A DNA stretch of 64,000 nt from Candidatus Eiseniibacteriota bacterium (GTDB taxonomy: Bacteria > Eisenbacteria > RBG-16-71-46 > CAIMUX01 > VGJL01): positions 15,900 through 79,899 of the forward strand of contig JBHGAY010000023.1 of the NCBI GenBank assembly GCA_041946735.1, read 5' to 3'. The notes beneath the pieces were generated by a model that did not search any database, was not told the DNA's origin, and saw only the letters and a list, made by a program, of their open reading frames with translations. Each line of letters starts with the position of its first letter. Within the stretch, counting starts at the first letter, position 1. Shown piece by piece: positions 14,502 to 43,268 of this stretch. The position numbers and the translations under genes were made by a program.

Positions 14502-14787
14502 GCGCTCTCCTCCTGCCGAATGGCGTCCGGAGCGCCGAACGTAGATGCCGTCGAACCGAGGGTCAAGGATCGCAGCGGGCCCGGCGGGTCCGCGCCCCCG
14601 GCCAGTCCGCCGCCCTCGCCGGCTCGCGCCCGGTCGCAGCGCCGTGGCGACAGACACCGCATGGCCGCCTCAGTGCCATCACCTAGCATCAGTCACCTCT
14701 CGCCCATACGACCGTGGAGCGCGTACAATTGCCCCCGGCTGACTGGAAGAGCCTTGCGTGAACAGTGGCAGTGGAAAGGAGGAGGTC

Positions 14788-15738
14788 ATGCGAGCACTGG
14801 CCGCATCGTTGCTCGCCTCTTTGATCCTGTCCGTGCCGGCGATTGCCGCCACCTATGTCGTCGATCCCTATGGCACCGGCGACTACCCGACGATCCAGGC
14901 CGCCGTGAACGGTTCCGCCAGCGGCGATGTGATCGAGCTGACCGATGGGACCTTCACCGGCCCCGGCAACCGGGACATCCGGTTCAATGGAAAGGACCTC
15001 ACCGTCCGGTCGCAGAGCGGCGATCCCACACGCACGGTCATCGACTGCGAGCTGGCGGAGCAGGCGTTCCTCATCTGGGAGGGCGAAGAGGTGCACTTCC
15101 AGGGAATGACGATGACCCGGGGGCGCGACTCCTCCTGGGGAGGAGCCGTCTGTGTGGAGATGGCGGCTCACGGAGTTTTTCGGGACTGCATCTTCAGCGA
15201 CAACAGCGCGCCGGGCAACGCCGGAGCCGTGATGATCATGAACTGCGGGTACGCGGAGTTCGAGGGGTGCACCTTCATCGACAACTCCAGCTATGCGGGC
15301 GGCGCCGTATGCACCTGACCCGGTGACATTGCACTGGTCCAGTGCACCTTCTACGACAACCAGGCCGAGGAAGGCAGCGCGATCTCCTTCCGCGGCGGTT
15401 GCGGAGTGGAGCTACGCGTCGAGAACACGATCATCGCCTTCAACAACGGCGGCTCGGCCATCGAGGGCGGCGCCGATGCCTTCTTCAGCTGCGTGGACAT
15501 CTATGGCAATCCGGGCGGCGACTGGACGCCGGCGATCGTCGACCAGCTCGGCCTGCGCGGAAACATCAGCGACGACCCGCTCTTTTGCGACGCTGCGGGC
15601 GGAGACCTTCGCCTGAATGAGGGCTCCCCCTGCGCGCCGGGCGGCGAGTGCGACAGGATGGGCGCCTGGCCGGTCGGGTGCGAGGCGACCGCCATCCGCG
15701 AGGCGAGCTGGGGCGAGGTCAAAGCGCTGTTCCGGTAG
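14788..15738 (+). CDS. Secreted right-handed parallel beta-helix protein with in-frame UGA (putative selenocysteine, residue 177) and SWG C-terminal tail; 316 aa
   Basis: AGGAGG SD + ATG 14788; signal peptide; DYPTIQAAV start; GGA(V/I)..CxFxDN repeats continue in register across TGA 15316-15318 into ORF 15406..15738 (same frame); SECIS-like hairpin follows. Confidence 0.8.
15319..15348 (+). promoter_or_regulatory. Putative bacterial SECIS element
   Basis: 11 nt after UGA: TGCACTG-GTC-CAGTGCA (stem 15330-15336/15340-15346); loop G at +19; GGUC apex like the E. coli fdhF SECIS. Confidence 0.75.
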
Positions 15739-38458: not shown

Positions 38459-38699
38459 CGCTTTCTCCTCCTTCTCGTGCGGCCGCCTTCACATCTAGCT
38501 TCTTGCCTTGACGACGATCTGCCTAGGCTGGGATCGACAGGCGGCGCCGAGCCGGGTCTCGTGCCGGGTGGAGGCTCGCGCCAGGTCGCGGGGCACGACG
38601 AAATCCGCTATCCTCAGCGGGCCCGATCCGAGGAGCGGGAGCTCGGAGCTCGGGGCCCGGATCGAGAGGGATGGACCGAATCGAAGAGGAGGCGCCGCC

Positions 38700-39542
38700 A
38701 TGCGTTGGACTTCCGGTCGACGGAGCACGAACGTCGAGGACCGCCGCGGTCGGGGAACCGGACTGGCGATCGGTGGAGGCATCACCACGCTGATCGCGCT
38801 CGCGGTCGCGCTCCTGTTCGGCGCCGACCCCAGGGCGCTGCTGGAACAGGTCACGACGAGCGAGACGAGCCAGGGGGAGTACCAGGCGAGCCCGCAGGAG
38901 CAGCAGCTCGCCGACTTCGTCTCCGTCGTCCTCGGCAGCACCGAGGACGTGTGGAAGCAGCTGTTCCAGGAGTCCGGAATGAGCTATCAGGACCCGATCC
39001 TGGTCCTCTTCACCGATCAGGTGCAGTCCGCTTGCGGGATCGCGGGAGCGGCGGTCGGCCCTTTCTATTGCTCCGAGGATCACCGGCTCTACATCGACCT
39101 CGGTTTCTACGACGAGTTGCGCGAACGTTTCGGCGCGCCGGGCGACTTCGCGCAGGCCTACGTGATCGCGCACGAGGTCGGGCACCATGTGCAGAACCTC
39201 CTCGGAACGCTGAACGAAGTACACAACGCACAGCAGCAGGCGAGAAGCGAGCGTGAGGCGAACGCGCTCTCCGTCCGCCTCGAGCTGCAAGCGGACTATC
39301 TGGCCGGAGTCTGGGCGCATTACGCGCAGCAAGAGGGACTGCTCGAACCCGGAGACATCGAAGAGGCGCTGAACGCGGCGAGCGCGATCGGCGACGACCG
39401 GCTCCAGCGCGAGATGCAGGGGCGGATCGTGCCGGACAGCTTCACGCACGGCACCTCGGCCCAGCGGGTCGAGTGGTTCCGCCGCGGGCTCCAGTCCGGA
39501 GACCCGGGCGGCGGCGACACGTTCGACGCGCCGGATCTGTGA
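38700..39542 (+). CDS. YpfJ-like neutral zinc metallopeptidase
   Basis: MRWTSGRRSTNVEDRRG start, GPFYC, HEVGHHVQ, LELQAD, SFTHGTSAQR; GAGGAGG SD. Confidence 0.93.
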   Translation: MRWTSGRRSTNVEDRRGRGTGLAIGGGITTLIALAVALLFGADPRALLEQVTTSETSQGEYQASPQEQQLADFVSVVLGSTEDVWKQLFQESGMSYQDPILVLFTDQVQSACGIAGAAVGPFYCSEDHRLYIDLGFYDELRERFGAPGDFAQAYVIAHEVGHHVQNLLGTLNEVHNAQQQARSEREANALSVRLELQADYLAGVWAHYAQQEGLLEPGDIEEALNAASAIGDDRLQREMQGRIVPDSFTHGTSAQRVEWFRRGLQSGDPGGGDTFDAPDL

Positions 39543-39666
39543 GATCGGCCTGAGGAGAAGGTCCGCGGCCTGCGAGGTCGCAGCCGGCGAGGTCGCGGCC
39601 GCTTGGACCGAGCGGCGGATCCTCGACGGCGAGGCCCCCGCCCTTCGGATCGAGGCTTCGTCTACG

Positions 39667-39695
39667 TTGCCAACTCCCAACCGCTCGTATAGTCT
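39667..39695 (+). promoter_or_regulatory. Putative sigma-70 promoter TTGCCA-N17-TAGTCT
   Basis: -35 at 39667-39672, -10 at 39690-39695 (overlapping TATAGT), upstream of the leader ORF. Confidence 0.5.
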
Positions 39696-39781
39696 GCCCC
39701 GTTCCCCGGCGCCACACCGGCGACCGGGGCCCATCGACTTCGCCTCCCCGCACAAGGGGAAAGGAGAACGAAGGTTCGCAG

Positions 39782-39889
39782 ATGAATCGCAGGACCTGAA
39801 ACCGCCGACGGCCTGAGGGACTCAGGCCTGGCCGTCGAGCGATCCTTCGCGCGCCCGCGGAGGTCCGGAGCGCTTCCACGTTCTTCTGA
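39782..39889 (+). CDS. Putative selenocysteine-containing leader peptide MNRRT-U-NRRRPEGLRPGRRAILRAPAEVRSASTFF (35 aa)
   Basis: AAGGAG and GAAGGT upstream; ATG 39782; TGA 39797-39799 followed by a SECIS-like hairpin; next in-frame stop 39887-39889. Confidence 0.55.
39800..39837 (+). promoter_or_regulatory. Putative bacterial SECIS element in leader ORF
   Basis: 11 nt after UGA: GCCTGAG-GGA-CTCAGGC (39811-39817/39821-39827), loop G at +19; lower stem CGAC/GTCG possible. Confidence 0.6.
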
Positions 39890-39900
39890 TCGCTCCTCCG

Positions 39901-39941
39901 CCTCCTCCCGTCACGCGAAGACTCGCTGGACCGGGAGGAGG
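39901..39941 (+). promoter_or_regulatory. Shine-Dalgarno-sequestering hairpin
   Basis: CCTCCTCCCG (39901-39910) is the exact reverse complement of CGGGAGGAGG (39932-39941), which contains the SD of the TTG start at 39946. Confidence 0.7.
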
Positions 39942-39945
39942 AACG

Positions 39946-41106
39946 TTGATCGAATCCCACGACACCGAACCGAGTGGCCGCTTCCGTTTTGAAGACCATC
40001 ACGAGACGCTCGAGCGCATCGCCGTCGACGTCACGGCGCGACATGCGCCCGAAGTCGACGCGACCGCGACCTTTCCCTCCGCCTCGATCGATGCCCTCGC
40101 CGCCGCCCGCCTTCTCGGGATGGTGAGCGCCCCTGAGGTCGGCGGGCTCGGAGGCGGCATTGCCGGCGCGGCGGCCGTCGTCCGCCGCCTCGCGCGCGAA
40201 TGTCCCTCCACGGCGATGGTCGTCACGATGCACTACTGCGGCACCGCCGTCCTCGAGCAGCACGCGGACGAGGCGACGCGCCGCCAAGCAGCGTCCGGCC
40301 GCCACCTTTCGACCCTCGCCTTCTCGGAAGCGGGATCGCGTAGCCACTTCTGGGCCCCTACCAGCACGGCCCGGCGCACGAAAGACGCGATCGAGCTCGA
40401 CGCGCGGAAGAGCTGGGTCACTTCGGCCCATCACGCGAGCGCCTACGTCTGGTCGAGCCGTCCGGTCGAGGCGGATGGAGCGAGCACGCTCTGGCTCGTG
40501 CCCGCGACCGCGCCGGGACTCGAAGCGCCCGAGCGCTTCCAGGGCCTCGGCCTTCGAGGGAACGACTCGACGCCGGTCACGGCGAAGGGGGTGCGCGTGC
40601 CGGAGTCGGCGAGGCTCGGCGAGGACGGGCAGGGCTTCAGCATCATGATGCAGACGGTGCTGCCGATCTTCGACGTGCTGATCTCCGCCTGCTCGGTGGG
40701 GATCATGGAAGCAACGACGTCACGCGCTGCGGCGCACGCGTCGGGCCAGCGCTACGAGCACATGGAGGCGGCCCTCGCCGACCTTCCGACGATCCGGGCG
40801 TACCTCGCGCGGATGCGGGTGAAGACCGACCAGGCGGCGACGCTTCTCGAGGACACGATCGCCGCCCTCACGCACGGCCGCGAGGACACGATGCTGCGCG
40901 TGCTCGAATCCAAGGCGGCGGCCGGCGAGCTTTCCCTCGAGGTCGTCGCGCTCGGCATGCGGGTCTGCGGCGGAGCCGCCTACCGCAAGGACCTCGGCAT
41001 CGAGCGCTTCTTCCGCGACGCGCAGGCGGCGAACGTCATGGCTCCGACCACCGACGCTCTCTACGACTTCATCGGCAAGGCGATCTGCGGGATGCCGCTG
41101 TTCTAG
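39946..41106 (+). CDS. Acyl-CoA dehydrogenase-fold flavoprotein (atypical)
   Basis: PEVGGLG, LAFSEAGS, KSWVTS, LGLRGNDS, CGGAAY..IERFFRDA; the usual C-terminal YEGT-type Glu is replaced (VMAPT). Confidence 0.92.
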   Translation: MIESHDTEPSGRFRFEDHHETLERIAVDVTARHAPEVDATATFPSASIDALAAARLLGMVSAPEVGGLGGGIAGAAAVVRRLARECPSTAMVVTMHYCGTAVLEQHADEATRRQAASGRHLSTLAFSEAGSRSHFWAPTSTARRTKDAIELDARKSWVTSAHHASAYVWSSRPVEADGASTLWLVPATAPGLEAPERFQGLGLRGNDSTPVTAKGVRVPESARLGEDGQGFSIMMQTVLPIFDVLISACSVGIMEATTSRAAAHASGQRYEHMEAALADLPTIRAYLARMRVKTDQAATLLEDTIAALTHGREDTMLRVLESKAAAGELSLEVVALGMRVCGGAAYRKDLGIERFFRDAQAANVMAPTTDALYDFIGKAICGMPLF

Positions 41107-41145: not shown

Positions 41146-42045
41146 ATGCAGAGGAGAACCGAACTGATCCTGGGAGCGGTCGCATACGACCCCAAGGTCG
41201 TCACGATCTGGGAGGGCTTTCAGCGCTACTTCGACGAGCGGAGCCTCCCGTTCGACTTCGTCCTGTTCACCCGCTACGAGCGCCAGGTCGAGTCGCACCT
41301 CGCCGGCCAGATCGACGTCGCGTGGAACTCCCCTCTCGCCTGGATCGAGACCGAGCGGCTTGCGGCGCGCGCCGGACGGAAGGCGCGGGCGATCGCGATG
41401 CGCGACACCGACCGCGATCTCACCTCGGTCATCGTCGTGAGAGAGGACTCGCCGATCCGGACCGTCGAGGAGCTGCGCGGGCGGCGGGTCGCAGTCGGCG
41501 CGGCCGATTCCCCGCAGGGGCGTCTGATCCCGCTCGGATTCCTCGCTCGCTTCGGACTCGAGCCGGGCGAGGACCTTTCCGTCGTCCCGCACGATCTGCT
41601 CGTCGGCAAGCACGGCGACCACGTTGGCGGGGAGCGTGAGGCGGTGCGCGCGCTCCTCGCGGGACGCGCCGACGCCGCCTGCCTGCTCGACGCCAATCTC
41701 CTGCAGTTCGCGCAGGAGGGAACGTTGCCGGCGGGCTCCCGGCGCGTTCTCGCCCAGACGCCCCCGTACGACCACTGCAACTTCACGGCCCTCGACGTAG
41801 CCGGGCCGGAGAAGGAGGAGCTCCTCACGCGCTTCCGGGAGGAGCTGCTCGCCATGTCGTACGACGACGCGCGTGTGCGTCCCCTGATGGATCTCGAAGG
41901 GCTCAAGCGCTGGCTGCCGGCGCGCACCGAAGGCTACGAGCAGTTGAACCGTGCGGTGGACCGATTCGGGACGATCGAAGCCTGGCTCGCGTCCGCCTCC
42001 GGCGCGGCCGGCGTTCCTTCGCCGGGCGACGAGGTCCGCGCGTGA
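41146..42045 (+). CDS. PhnD/SsuA-like substrate-binding-fold protein without signal peptide
   Basis: GQIDVAW, SVIVVREDSPI..VEELRGRRVAVGAADSPQG, LLAGRADAA; no hydrophobic N-terminus. Confidence 0.85.
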   Translation: MQRRTELILGAVAYDPKVVTIWEGFQRYFDERSLPFDFVLFTRYERQVESHLAGQIDVAWNSPLAWIETERLAARAGRKARAIAMRDTDRDLTSVIVVREDSPIRTVEELRGRRVAVGAADSPQGRLIPLGFLARFGLEPGEDLSVVPHDLLVGKHGDHVGGEREAVRALLAGRADAACLLDANLLQFAQEGTLPAGSRRVLAQTPPYDHCNFTALDVAGPEKEELLTRFREELLAMSYDDARVRPLMDLEGLKRWLPARTEGYEQLNRAVDRFGTIEAWLASASGAAGVPSPGDEVRA

Positions 42046-43268
42046 GGACCGGCTCGGTTCAGGCGGTGGTCGACCTCGGCAATCTCTCGCTCGATCGAGG
42101 CGGGCGCCTGCTCCTGCAGCGGGCGATCGCCCCTCTCGTCCCGGGCGAGCGGCTCGAGGTGCGCGGTTCCGATCCGGAGCTGCCGGTGCATCTGCGCGCC
42201 TGGTGCCGCTCTCGCGGCTATCGATTCGAGACCGGCGCCGTGGGCGAGAACGGCTCCGGCGCACTGGCCGTCGTCATCGGAGAAAGCGGATCGGGGGGAC
42301 GATGGAGCGGCGCGGAGCCGGCCGGGCGCGCAAGCCGTACGGCGTCCGGAGCGGTCGTGGACAGGCCGCCCGCCCGCTGGGGCCTCGCCCCCCGCGGCGC
42401 CTCGGTCGAGATCGGGACGCCGTCCTTCGACTTCGATCTCGACGCCAAGGAGCAGGTCTGGTCCGACGATGCCGCTCGCCTCTATGCGCAGGCGTGCGCA
42501 GCGCAGTGGGATCCCGAGAAGGCGATCGACTGGCGCTCGTCAGCCGACCTGCCCGGCGAGATCGAGCAGGCGGTCGTGCAGATCATGACCTACCTGATCG
42601 AGAACGAGACCGCCGCGCTGGTCGTCCCGGCGCGCTTCCTCGGACGGATCCATCCTCACTTCCGCGAGGTGCAGCAGCTCCTCGCGATCCAGGTGGCGGA
42701 CGAGGCGCGCCACATCGAGGTGTTCACGCGCCGGGCGCTGTTGCTGGGCGACTCGCTCGGACTGTCGACGGCCGGCGGCCAGGAATCGCTGAAGACCCTG
42801 CTCGATGAGCCGGACTTCGCGATCGCCTCCTTTTTGCTCTCCGTCCTCGGCGAAGGGAGCTTCCTCTCGCTCCTGCACTTCCTCGACGAGAACGCGCCGG
42901 ATCCGGTCACGCGGCAAGTGTGCCGTCTCGCCGGACAGGACGAGGCGCGCCACGTCGCCTTCGGCCTATCGCATCTGAGGCGGCATCTGGAGATCGATCC
43001 ATCGCTGCGCGCCCGCCTCGCCGCGTCGGTCGATCGCCGGCATCGGGCGCTCCAGCATTCGGCCGGGTTGAACGAGGAGGTCTTCGACGGGCTGGTGCTG
43101 CTGGCGGCGGGATCGTGGGAGCCCGATCGCATCGCGCACGGCCACGAGCAGGTCGCCGCCCTCCAGCACGACATGGACGAGGGACGGCGGGCGCGCCTCG
43201 CCCGCCTCGGGTTCACCCAGGGGGAGGCGGAGGCGCTGTCGAGCCTGCATACGAAGAACTTCATGTAG
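42042..43268 (+). CDS. TusA-like N-terminal domain fused to ferritin-like diiron domain
   Basis: N-term VVDL..LVPGERLEVRGSDP..LRAWCRSRGY; diiron ligands IENE, DEARH, LGEG, DEARH; GTGA overlap with the upstream gene. Confidence 0.85.
   Translation: MRTGSVQAVVDLGNLSLDRGGRLLLQRAIAPLVPGERLEVRGSDPELPVHLRAWCRSRGYRFETGAVGENGSGALAVVIGESGSGGRWSGAEPAGRASRTASGAVVDRPPARWGLAPRGASVEIGTPSFDFDLDAKEQVWSDDAARLYAQACAAQWDPEKAIDWRSSADLPGEIEQAVVQIMTYLIENETAALVVPARFLGRIHPHFREVQQLLAIQVADEARHIEVFTRRALLLGDSLGLSTAGGQESLKTLLDEPDFAIASFLLSVLGEGSFLSLLHFLDENAPDPVTRQVCRLAGQDEARHVAFGLSHLRRHLEIDPSLRARLAASVDRRHRALQHSAGLNEEVFDGLVLLAAGSWEPDRIAHGHEQVAALQHDMDEGRRARLARLGFTQGEAEALSSLHTKNFM

Follow-up and report, generated by a model that had tools for sequence, protein, structure and literature searches.

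Several bacterial leaders couple the position of a translating ribosome to the expression of the genes downstream, and trpL, hisL, pheL, ermC and tnaC (Escherichia coli) are well-known attenuators or switches of this leader-peptide kind. In selenium metabolism, a selenocysteine insertion sequence (SECIS)-like element was reportedly described by Thanbichler and Bock in 2002 in the 5′ untranslated region of E. coli selAB, where SelB is said to bind near the translation start with no translated UGA frame. In Treponema primitia, translational uncoupling under selenium limitation cuts the fdhF(Sec) transcript short after the SECIS, and the part of that paper available to us also reports an effect on fdhF(Cys), for which it gives no mechanism (PMC3892789). 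Here we analyse a leader found in a 64,000-nucleotide stretch of a Candidatus Eiseniibacteriota genome (assembly GCA_041946735.1, contig JBHGAY010000023.1, positions 15,900 to 79,899 of the forward strand; hereafter the window), in which a very short open reading frame (mini-ORF), its UGA codon and a SECIS-like hairpin precede a three-gene operon.

The conservation of this leader, the selenocysteine (Sec) trait of its hosts and its likeness to a selD SECIS all point to a ribosome-position switch, as the original prediction from this DNA had implied without giving the switch a direction. We think it likely that the leader senses, by way of the ribosome, whether the cell is able to decode UGA as Sec. 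The original prediction knew of no attenuator of this kind, and we likewise found no description of a UGA/SECIS leader ORF in the full-text literature, subscription journals not being covered; nor did the same literature yield a mechanism by which bacteria sense selenium status and choose between a selenoenzyme and its cysteine (Cys) back-up.

A SECIS-like hairpin behind a mini-ORF

The UGA that ends the mini-ORF (at 39797; Table 1) is followed by a hairpin whose upper stem is a perfect 8 bp, with GGCCTGAG (39810-39817) pairing to CTCAGGCC (39821-39828) around a GGA loop (39818-39820) that begins 21 nt after the U of the UGA. The bSECISearch consensus for bacterial SECIS elements is said to consist of an in-frame UGA and a hairpin with its apical loop approximately 16-37 nt downstream and a G among the first loop bases. 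The UGA and hairpin of the window fit this consensus, as do those of 15 genome leaders and 8 metagenome leaders.

The window genome (G000) is equipped for Sec decoding: it encodes tRNA-Sec (72.1 bits), SelB (349 bits) and SelA (479 bits), all over the curated cut-offs, and a SelD, also over its curated cut-off, with one in-frame TGA at what we take to be the active-site Cys/Sec position. In the SECIS of this selD gene the TGA is followed after 12 nt by GCTCCGGG GGA CCTGGAGC, an 8-bp stem with the loop at +23. The leader hairpin thus resembles a SECIS of its own genome in stem length (8 bp in both) and loop sequence (GGA in both), with the loop at +21 rather than +23. A similar likeness was seen in the acidobacterial genome G206, where the selD SECIS has a 7-bp stem and a GGT loop at +23 and the leader hairpin a 6-bp stem and a GTG loop at +21.

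The exact window hairpin is present only once in G000. A search of that genome for further leaders with TGA-plus-hairpin filters returned 425 sites and 31 short-frame candidates, none of them convincing, the filters being too noisy because the genome is G+C-rich. The same 425 sites on 9.78 Mb (both strands), counted in this one genome as a TGA followed by a hairpin of at least 7 bp whose loop starts with G and lies at +19 to +26, correspond to approximately 0.017 expected per 400-nt strand; for a single genome alone this chance level is modest, and the case rests on conservation across genomes.

Conservation of the leader in orthologous operons

Orthologous operons were drawn from relatives of the window genome, from one genome per GTDB species, from the phylum Candidatus Eiseniibacteriota and from metagenome contigs, so that most of the sequences are metagenome-assembled genomes (MAGs) or metagenome contigs. 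Approximately 300 nt upstream of each operon was scanned under a fixed rule, namely a TGA with an in-frame start no more than 30 codons away, followed by a hairpin whose stem spans no fewer than 6 bp, with no more than one G-U pair, and whose 3-6-nt loop begins at +21 to +24. After removal of L008 (the same place as L033) and of L053 and L084 (no upstream sequence), 44 genome loci were scanned; the metagenome set of 36 loci was reduced to 29 by setting aside seven with no usable upstream sequence or representing mere match fragments.

Short ORF, UGA and hairpin were found together at 12 of 15 loci in Eiseniibacteriota, at both loci in Acidobacteria, at the single locus in Acidimicrobiales, at none of one in Planctomycetes and at one of 25 in Proteobacteria. 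The proteobacterial match (L037), which has an ACAT loop, is probably a chance occurrence. Nine of the 29 metagenome loci contained the unit, of which eight are convincing and one (L142) is doubtful. We also noted that the leader of L144 seems identical to that of L052.

Conservation of this unit in the operon's orthologues had been put forward as a check in the original prediction, and it was found together with compensatory changes in the stem and synonymous changes in the upstream ORF (uORF). At least 11 different stem sequences occur in the orthologues, all perfectly paired (GGCCUGAG, GCCUGAG, GCCGGGA, AGACCCGAG, CCCGGC, GUCGCCC, CCCGGG, GGCUCGA, GGAUGG, GGGUGG, GGGGGG and GGGCGG), and the window hairpin recurs exactly in four metagenome leaders. 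Covariation was read from anchored sequences; aligning the two leader clades jointly with MAFFT put the UGA out of register, and that alignment was set aside. An apparent rule that a purine always follows the UGA applied to the first 19 leaders and failed in the metagenome leaders, where C and T also occur.

Two types of leader could be distinguished. The window type consists of an ATG, 3-7 codons and the UGA, with the peptides MNRRT (twice), MLRVC, MSLMRL, MNYRL, MQRR, MWIELKRT, MNRL and MFRL. The second type (clade 2) belongs to more distant operon orthologues of the same phylum and has a longer frame that ends in S-G-F-G-UGA or E-Y-G-UGA, followed by a hairpin of the form GGRUGG CGGGUY CCAYCC with a CGGGU-type loop and the G at position 2.

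At the codon level, the mini-ORF of the window and that of locus L006 differ by five nucleotides, all synonymous, so that both encode MNRRT (the operon protein is 69% identical between the two). Among seven clade-2 leaders ending in S/Q-G-F-G-UGA, the last three codons vary at each of their three wobble positions and are invariant at the remaining six. This pattern shows signs of being the signature of a translated mini-ORF.

Association of the leader and operon with selenium

The three-gene operon is itself linked to selenium by its neighbours. In a Methyloversatilis MAG (L029:1-8116) the gene order is selA, selB, tRNA-Sec (80.9 bits), the three-gene operon and selD, and in a Methylococcaceae MAG (L027:685-4776) selD lies directly 3′ of the operon, gene neighbourhoods which indicate that the operon belongs to selenium metabolism. 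All 15 leader-bearing genomes encode SelB (13 genomes) or SelA (two genomes, G206 and G072). Among operon-bearing betaproteobacteria, SelB was not found in G209 and G210 and SelA was not found in G211 and G212; these four genomes, of which G209-G211 have SelD, lack a UGA leader, and a structured leader of another kind stands in its place. The leader thus follows the restriction to Sec-decoding genomes that had been anticipated. Within the phylum, SelB exceeds the cut-off in 177 of 206 genomes and is so nearly universal that the correlation with the Sec trait has no power there. This tally includes one unpublished genome (G079), of which the other claims are independent.

The different leader of the betaproteobacteria is a conserved, structured region of approximately 190 nt located 5′ of the same operon (L030:3695-3885 and 16 other loci, alignment A3) in Nitrosospira, Gallionella, Rhodoferax and similar MAGs. 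Of its 42 predicted pairs, 10 show compensatory changes, and the region has no Rfam match. In each of five genomes it occurs in exactly one copy, always at the three-gene operon; in the four of these five that were checked, SelB or SelA was not found, and three of the four have SelD. We regard this region as a candidate new riboswitch that is possibly related to selenium.

Leaders of the same type before other genes

A covariance model (R1) of the clade-2 leader, a kind of check that the original prediction had also proposed, was searched against 151 genomes of the phylum and recovered seven of its training loci together with new copies in G049, G006, G084 and G150, located before other genes. 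In each new copy the frame ends in E-Y-G-UGA or D-G-UGA, and the hairpin follows. Three of the four (L096 in G049:C15, L098 in G084:C410 and L099 in G150:C29) stand before genes for UshA-like proteins that contain a cytochrome c554 domain, whose nearest family is NF041198, the ‘UshA-like (seleno)protein’, and which have Cys at the Sec position of that family (..TSPCGC..). Sec paralogues of these proteins (L101 and L102) are encoded elsewhere in G049 and G084, with a TGA at the same position (..TSPCG-TGA-HTPKGG..), and gave no R1 match in either genome. The leaders located before the Cys paralogues may act as a Sec/Cys isoenzyme switch. The fourth copy, L097 (G006:C55:80036-80098), contains MFFHRLFDFEYG-UGA and lies ahead of a gene for a 427-aa protein that has a signal peptide and weakly matches DcaP-like outer-membrane proteins, and that could be a selenium-related porin.

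A second hairpin, CCGGRAUC GUC GAUYCCGG, was noted in the E-Y-G-type leaders L080, L096 and L098. It has an 8-bp stem with compensatory changes and a GUC loop, and lies approximately 60-90 nt past the UGA, with the SECIS-like hairpin on its 5′ side and the start of the regulated gene on its 3′ side. No UGA was found at SECIS distance from it in these three leaders.

Proposed mechanism and its direction

From the comparisons above we infer both Sec insertion at the mini-ORF UGA and a regulatory output on the operon. In the proposed sensor, a ribosome would start at the ATG at 39782 and arrive at the UGA, codon 6, where the hairpin with its loop 21 nt downstream would serve as a SECIS for the SelB of the host. 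If SelB-GTP-Sec-tRNASec is present, Sec would be inserted and the ribosome would travel a further 29 codons as far as a second UGA (39887-89), next to the helix predicted to sequester the Shine-Dalgarno sequence (SD) of gene 1; if it is absent, release factor would terminate translation at codon 6 or the ribosome would stall there. The end point of the ribosome would then set the fate of the downstream RNA, and hence expression of the operon, with masking or unmasking of the SD, translational coupling, or polarity on exposed C-rich untranslated RNA as candidate outputs.

Several properties of the region bear on this proposal. The 265-nt leader is more stable than its shuffles (z = -3.19, with none of 200 shuffles folding as well). 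In minimum free energy (MFE) folds of the window, a helix of 39901-39912 with 39930-39941 pairs the SD GGGAGGAGGA (39933-39942) of the TTG start at 39946, and this helix begins 14 nt past the first base of the read-through stop. In 12 of 14 window-type leaders a distance of 38-63 nt separates the second stop from the operon start, the stop being located just upstream of the pyrimidine-rich anti-SD and the SD-containing hairpin. Clade-2 read-through ends after 4-15 codons, 78-186 nt 5′ of the start.

As to direction in the window, our analysis leans only slightly towards activation by read-through over induction on Sec shortage. The lean arises because the second stop abuts the SD helix, a geometry suited to translational coupling, and because there is a precedent for polarity after a UGA/SECIS; the C-rich read-through region would be polarity-prone if left untranslated, which also speaks for activation. 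Induction on shortage appears nearly as likely, because the sister leader precedes Cys paralogues and the Sec paralogues do not have it. The position of the operon next to selD counts in the same direction, as do loci L006 and L146, where read-through ribosomes would overrun the ribosome-binding site of the operon.

Alternative explanations and points against the sensor

Of the alternatives, the one that survives best, although we hold it to be improbable, is that the frame encodes a functional small selenopeptide of 23-36 residues that acts with the operon, for instance as a selenium carrier or as a ribosomal precursor that the three enzymes would modify. Such a peptide would account for the location of the frame directly 5′ of the enzymes and for conservation before the UGA (MNRRT twice, and ..S-G-F-G-U and ..E-Y-G-U in clade 2), but after the Sec nothing is conserved beyond what the hairpin imposes, the length is anywhere between 4 and 30 codons, and different residues flank the Sec (T-U-N, L-U-T, R-U-A and C-U-K). 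The operon also occurs with no such frame in betaproteobacteria that have SelD but in which SelA or SelB was not found, and the same type of leader stands before unrelated genes for UshA-like and porin-like proteins.

A slightly less probable alternative again is that the hairpin is a SelB operator that works with no translation, a SECIS-like SelB site in the 5′ untranslated region that represses or stabilises the mRNA, the mini-ORF being incidental. Evolution of the uORFs by synonymous change argues against an incidental frame, as does the presence of an in-frame start and UGA, with the loop at +21 to +24, in 15 of 15 genome leaders and in eight metagenome leaders. Moreover, the hairpin is located approximately 105 nt upstream of the regulated SD (39933-42) and hence not at that SD, even though it shares the geometry of a genuine SECIS in that genome and the operon is selenium-linked, both of which speak for an operator of this kind. 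An ordinary short-ORF leader, or a sensor of release factor 2 (RF2) or termination efficiency, with a generic hairpin whose likeness to a SECIS is a G+C-rich coincidence, is very unlikely: TGA is a common stop in G000, hairpins after TGA are not rare there (the 425 sites above) and no Rfam family matches, but the distance from UGA to loop stays fixed across more than 20 leaders, which between them have at least 11 different stems, the unit is limited to Sec-decoding genomes and selenium-linked genes, and in 15 motif-selected leaders the hairpin is anchored by TGA in 15, by TAA in none and by TAG in one, where dinucleotide shuffles averaged 0.51 and never exceeded 4 of 15, a control that is circular because the set was picked by motif (the unbiased count being that of the 44-locus scan).

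The sensor that we favour over these alternatives also has to be weighed against a number of contrary observations. Five Sec-decoding genomes (G013, G031, G021, G213 and G214) have the operon with no UGA leader, and the same is probably true of L029, where the sel genes adjoin the operon. TGA is the commonest stop in G000, ending approximately 61% of open frames of at least 400 codons, which makes its exclusive use in the leaders only moderately telling. The leader instances are not all independent, and a leader may have moved along with its operon. The read-through frames of L006 and L146 do not end at the conserved stop and continue across the operon start. Folding of the clade-2 leaders gave no evident expression platform or output structure, and MFE folds place the SD in a long helix in only three of seven leaders (the window, L009 and L033). 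We also compared the unpaired probability of the SD by static folding with and without a mask representing a ribosome parked at the read-through stop. With the mask it rose in the window (0.33 to 0.36), L009 (0.16 to 0.29), L033 (0.34 to 0.46), L119 (0.26 to 0.52) and L147 (0.41 to 0.54), and fell in L123 (0.41 to 0.35) and L052 (0.41 to 0.25), so that the modelled effects on the SD are small and inconsistent.

Organisation of the leader and the operon

Table 1. Coordinates of the leader elements and operon genes within the window.
Feature	Coordinates	Strand	Basis or detail
Promoter-like region	39667..39695	+	TTGCCA 39667-39672; overlapping -10 candidates TATAGT 39688-39693 or TAGTCT 39690-39695
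Hairpin in 5′ leader, ahead of mini-ORF	39696..39730	+	MFE and centroid fold
Purine-rich SD-like elements of mini-ORF	39761..39775	+	AAGGAG 39761-39766; GAAGGT 39770-39775
Mini-ORF ATG AAT CGC AGG ACC TGA (MNRRT, then UGA)	39782..39799	+	Read from sequence
SECIS-like hairpin with lower stem	39801..39835 (lower-stem limits approximate)	+	Sequence and folds
Read-through extension of mini-ORF, 29 codons, NRRRPEGLRPGRRAILRAPAEVRSASTFF	39800..39889	+	Stop TGA 39887-39889
Weak terminator-like hairpin and T-rich tail, within read-through frame	39859..39887	+	Terminator scan
Pyrimidine-rich anti-SD repeats CTCCTCCG CCTCCTCCCG and helix pairing them to SD	39893..39942	+	MFE folds
Gene 1, Rv1679/FadE16-like acyl-CoA-dehydrogenase-fold flavoprotein, TTG start	39946..41106	+	Pfam; NCBIfam NF049984
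Gene 2, Rv1680-like substrate-binding-protein (SBP)-fold protein (PhnD/SsuA superfamily)	41146..42045	+	PF12974; NF049985
Gene 3, TusA-like N-terminal domain and AurF/R2-like diiron domain	42042..43268	+	Pfam, sub-cut-off

Every element of the leader anatomy given in the original prediction was recovered here at its coordinates, including the SD-like elements and mini-ORF, the read-through frame (35 residues, Sec included, reaching its stop after 29 further codons) and the predicted helix hiding the SD of the next gene. For its promoter, TTGCCA with TAGTCT 17 nt away, both boxes are present, but a strict sigma-70 consensus scan of 39500-40000 returned no promoter-like sites. The alternative box TATAGT, 15 nt from TTGCCA, is the better -10 box, and by eye a TAnAnT box was seen at a comparable position in the orthologous leaders L006, L009, L033 and L025/26. 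The promoter assignment is accordingly put forward as a weak one, based on a weak consensus match and on this TAnAnT box. GAAGGT lies 6 nt 5′ of the mini-ORF ATG in the window, and purine-rich elements 5-7 nt 5′ of the uORF ATG were also seen by eye in L009, L033, L025 and L052.

The terminator scan of the leader returned one site, at 39859-77, against 0.2 expected, a weak hairpin of six pairs with three G-C, and no convincing intrinsic terminator was found there. Rfam gave no match at the gathering score across the whole window, and at E values up to 10 a single chance-level miRNA match in 39500-40100. Three minus-strand ORFs over the leader (39442-40434, 38523-39755 and 39822-39965) and a 49-aa plus-strand frame (39667-39816) match no Pfam family and were treated as non-coding.

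The gene order of the operon is the same in nearly all orthologous loci retrieved, and genes 2 and 3 of the window overlap by 4 nt. TTG 39946 is the sole in-frame start found for gene 1. Gene 1 scores 391.7 bits against NF049984 (cut-off 600 bits) and gene 2 scores 248 bits against NF049985 (cut-off 400 bits); all NCBIfam matches of the operon are under their curated cut-offs, so the names given are those of the nearest families only. Both Pfam matches of gene 3, PF11583 (25.8 bits, cut-off 29.6) and PF01206 (23.3 bits, cut-off 28.6), are likewise under cut-off, which makes its two domain names tentative. The active-site motif of TusA is CPxP, and the TusA-like domain of gene 3 is without the cysteine of the CP motif. 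Nothing on the function of Rv1679 or Rv1680 turned up in those parts of the literature that were accessible to us, and the accessible part of a preprint by Haft (10.1101/2022.07.06.499078) mentions neither the leader nor the three-gene operon.

Other in-frame TGA sites in the window genome

A second TGA in the window (15316-15318), which the original prediction had singled out for a hairpin of the same geometry as that of the leader, is indeed followed after 11 nt by TGCACTG GTC CAGTGCA, with the loop at +21. It interrupts a plus-strand frame (14758-15735), otherwise open across this one in-frame TGA (..GGAVCT-U-PGDIALVQC..), that encodes a right-handed beta-helix protein with a signal peptide (PF13229, 38.3 bits). 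The frame is a candidate new selenoprotein or, alternatively, a broken gene. Further in-frame TGA-plus-hairpin sites resembling selenoproteins, with GTT, GTA and GGTC loops, are present in contigs C71, C7, C38 and C45 of G000, including a peroxiredoxin-like (..FYPEANTGG-U-TAE..) and a thioredoxin-fold-like (..WHPT-U-GAC..) sequence.

Significance and comparison with known systems

With somewhat less confidence than we attach to the sensor itself, we favour the view that this leader is a member of a widespread, undescribed class in which the translating ribosome, SelB and a SECIS behind a sacrificial UGA mini-ORF would jointly sense selenium status, with a regulon including selenium-trafficking operons near selD and Cys paralogues. 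Such a class, if real, would account for the way in which bacteria change over between Sec and Cys isoenzymes. Using the Sec-recoding event itself as the measurement would make a direct and economical sensor, and would add stop-codon recoding to the inputs of ribosome-mediated attenuation. The widespread three-gene operon of Rv1679/Rv1680 type would gain, via selenium, a first functional handle, and mini-ORF, UGA and SECIS together would form a compact, portable part.

The leader resembles genuine bacterial SECIS elements, such as that of selD in G000, in its spacer of 10-14 nt, its stem of 6-9 bp and its small G-first loop approximately 21-24 nt after the UGA, and differs from them in having a frame of five codons and no conserved protein around the Sec position. 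With the E. coli selAB element it shares a SECIS-type hairpin in the leader of a selenium gene and SelB as the likely reader; unlike that element, it has a conserved ATG frame with a UGA at SECIS distance, and its hairpin is far from the SD of the gene that it would regulate. As in T. primitia fdhF(Sec), the supply of selenium would gate passage of the ribosome through a UGA/SECIS and hence the downstream transcript (PMC3892789), but there the UGA lies inside a selenoprotein gene, whereas here a dedicated mini-ORF stands before genes with no Sec codon. Like attenuators of the trpL type, the leader has a short ORF in which the point where the ribosome stops would decide the state of the downstream RNA, here with a predicted SD-sequestering helix downstream, and as in trpL a second stop is located at the edge of a helix. 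Unlike trpL-type attenuators it has a single sensing codon rather than a run of regulatory codons, and its proposed input differs from that of both trpL-type and exit-tunnel sensors: where those read an ordinary charged tRNA or, in the exit tunnel, a small molecule, the ribosome here would respond to the recoding of a stop codon, which needs a SECIS in cis, SelB and Sec-tRNASec.

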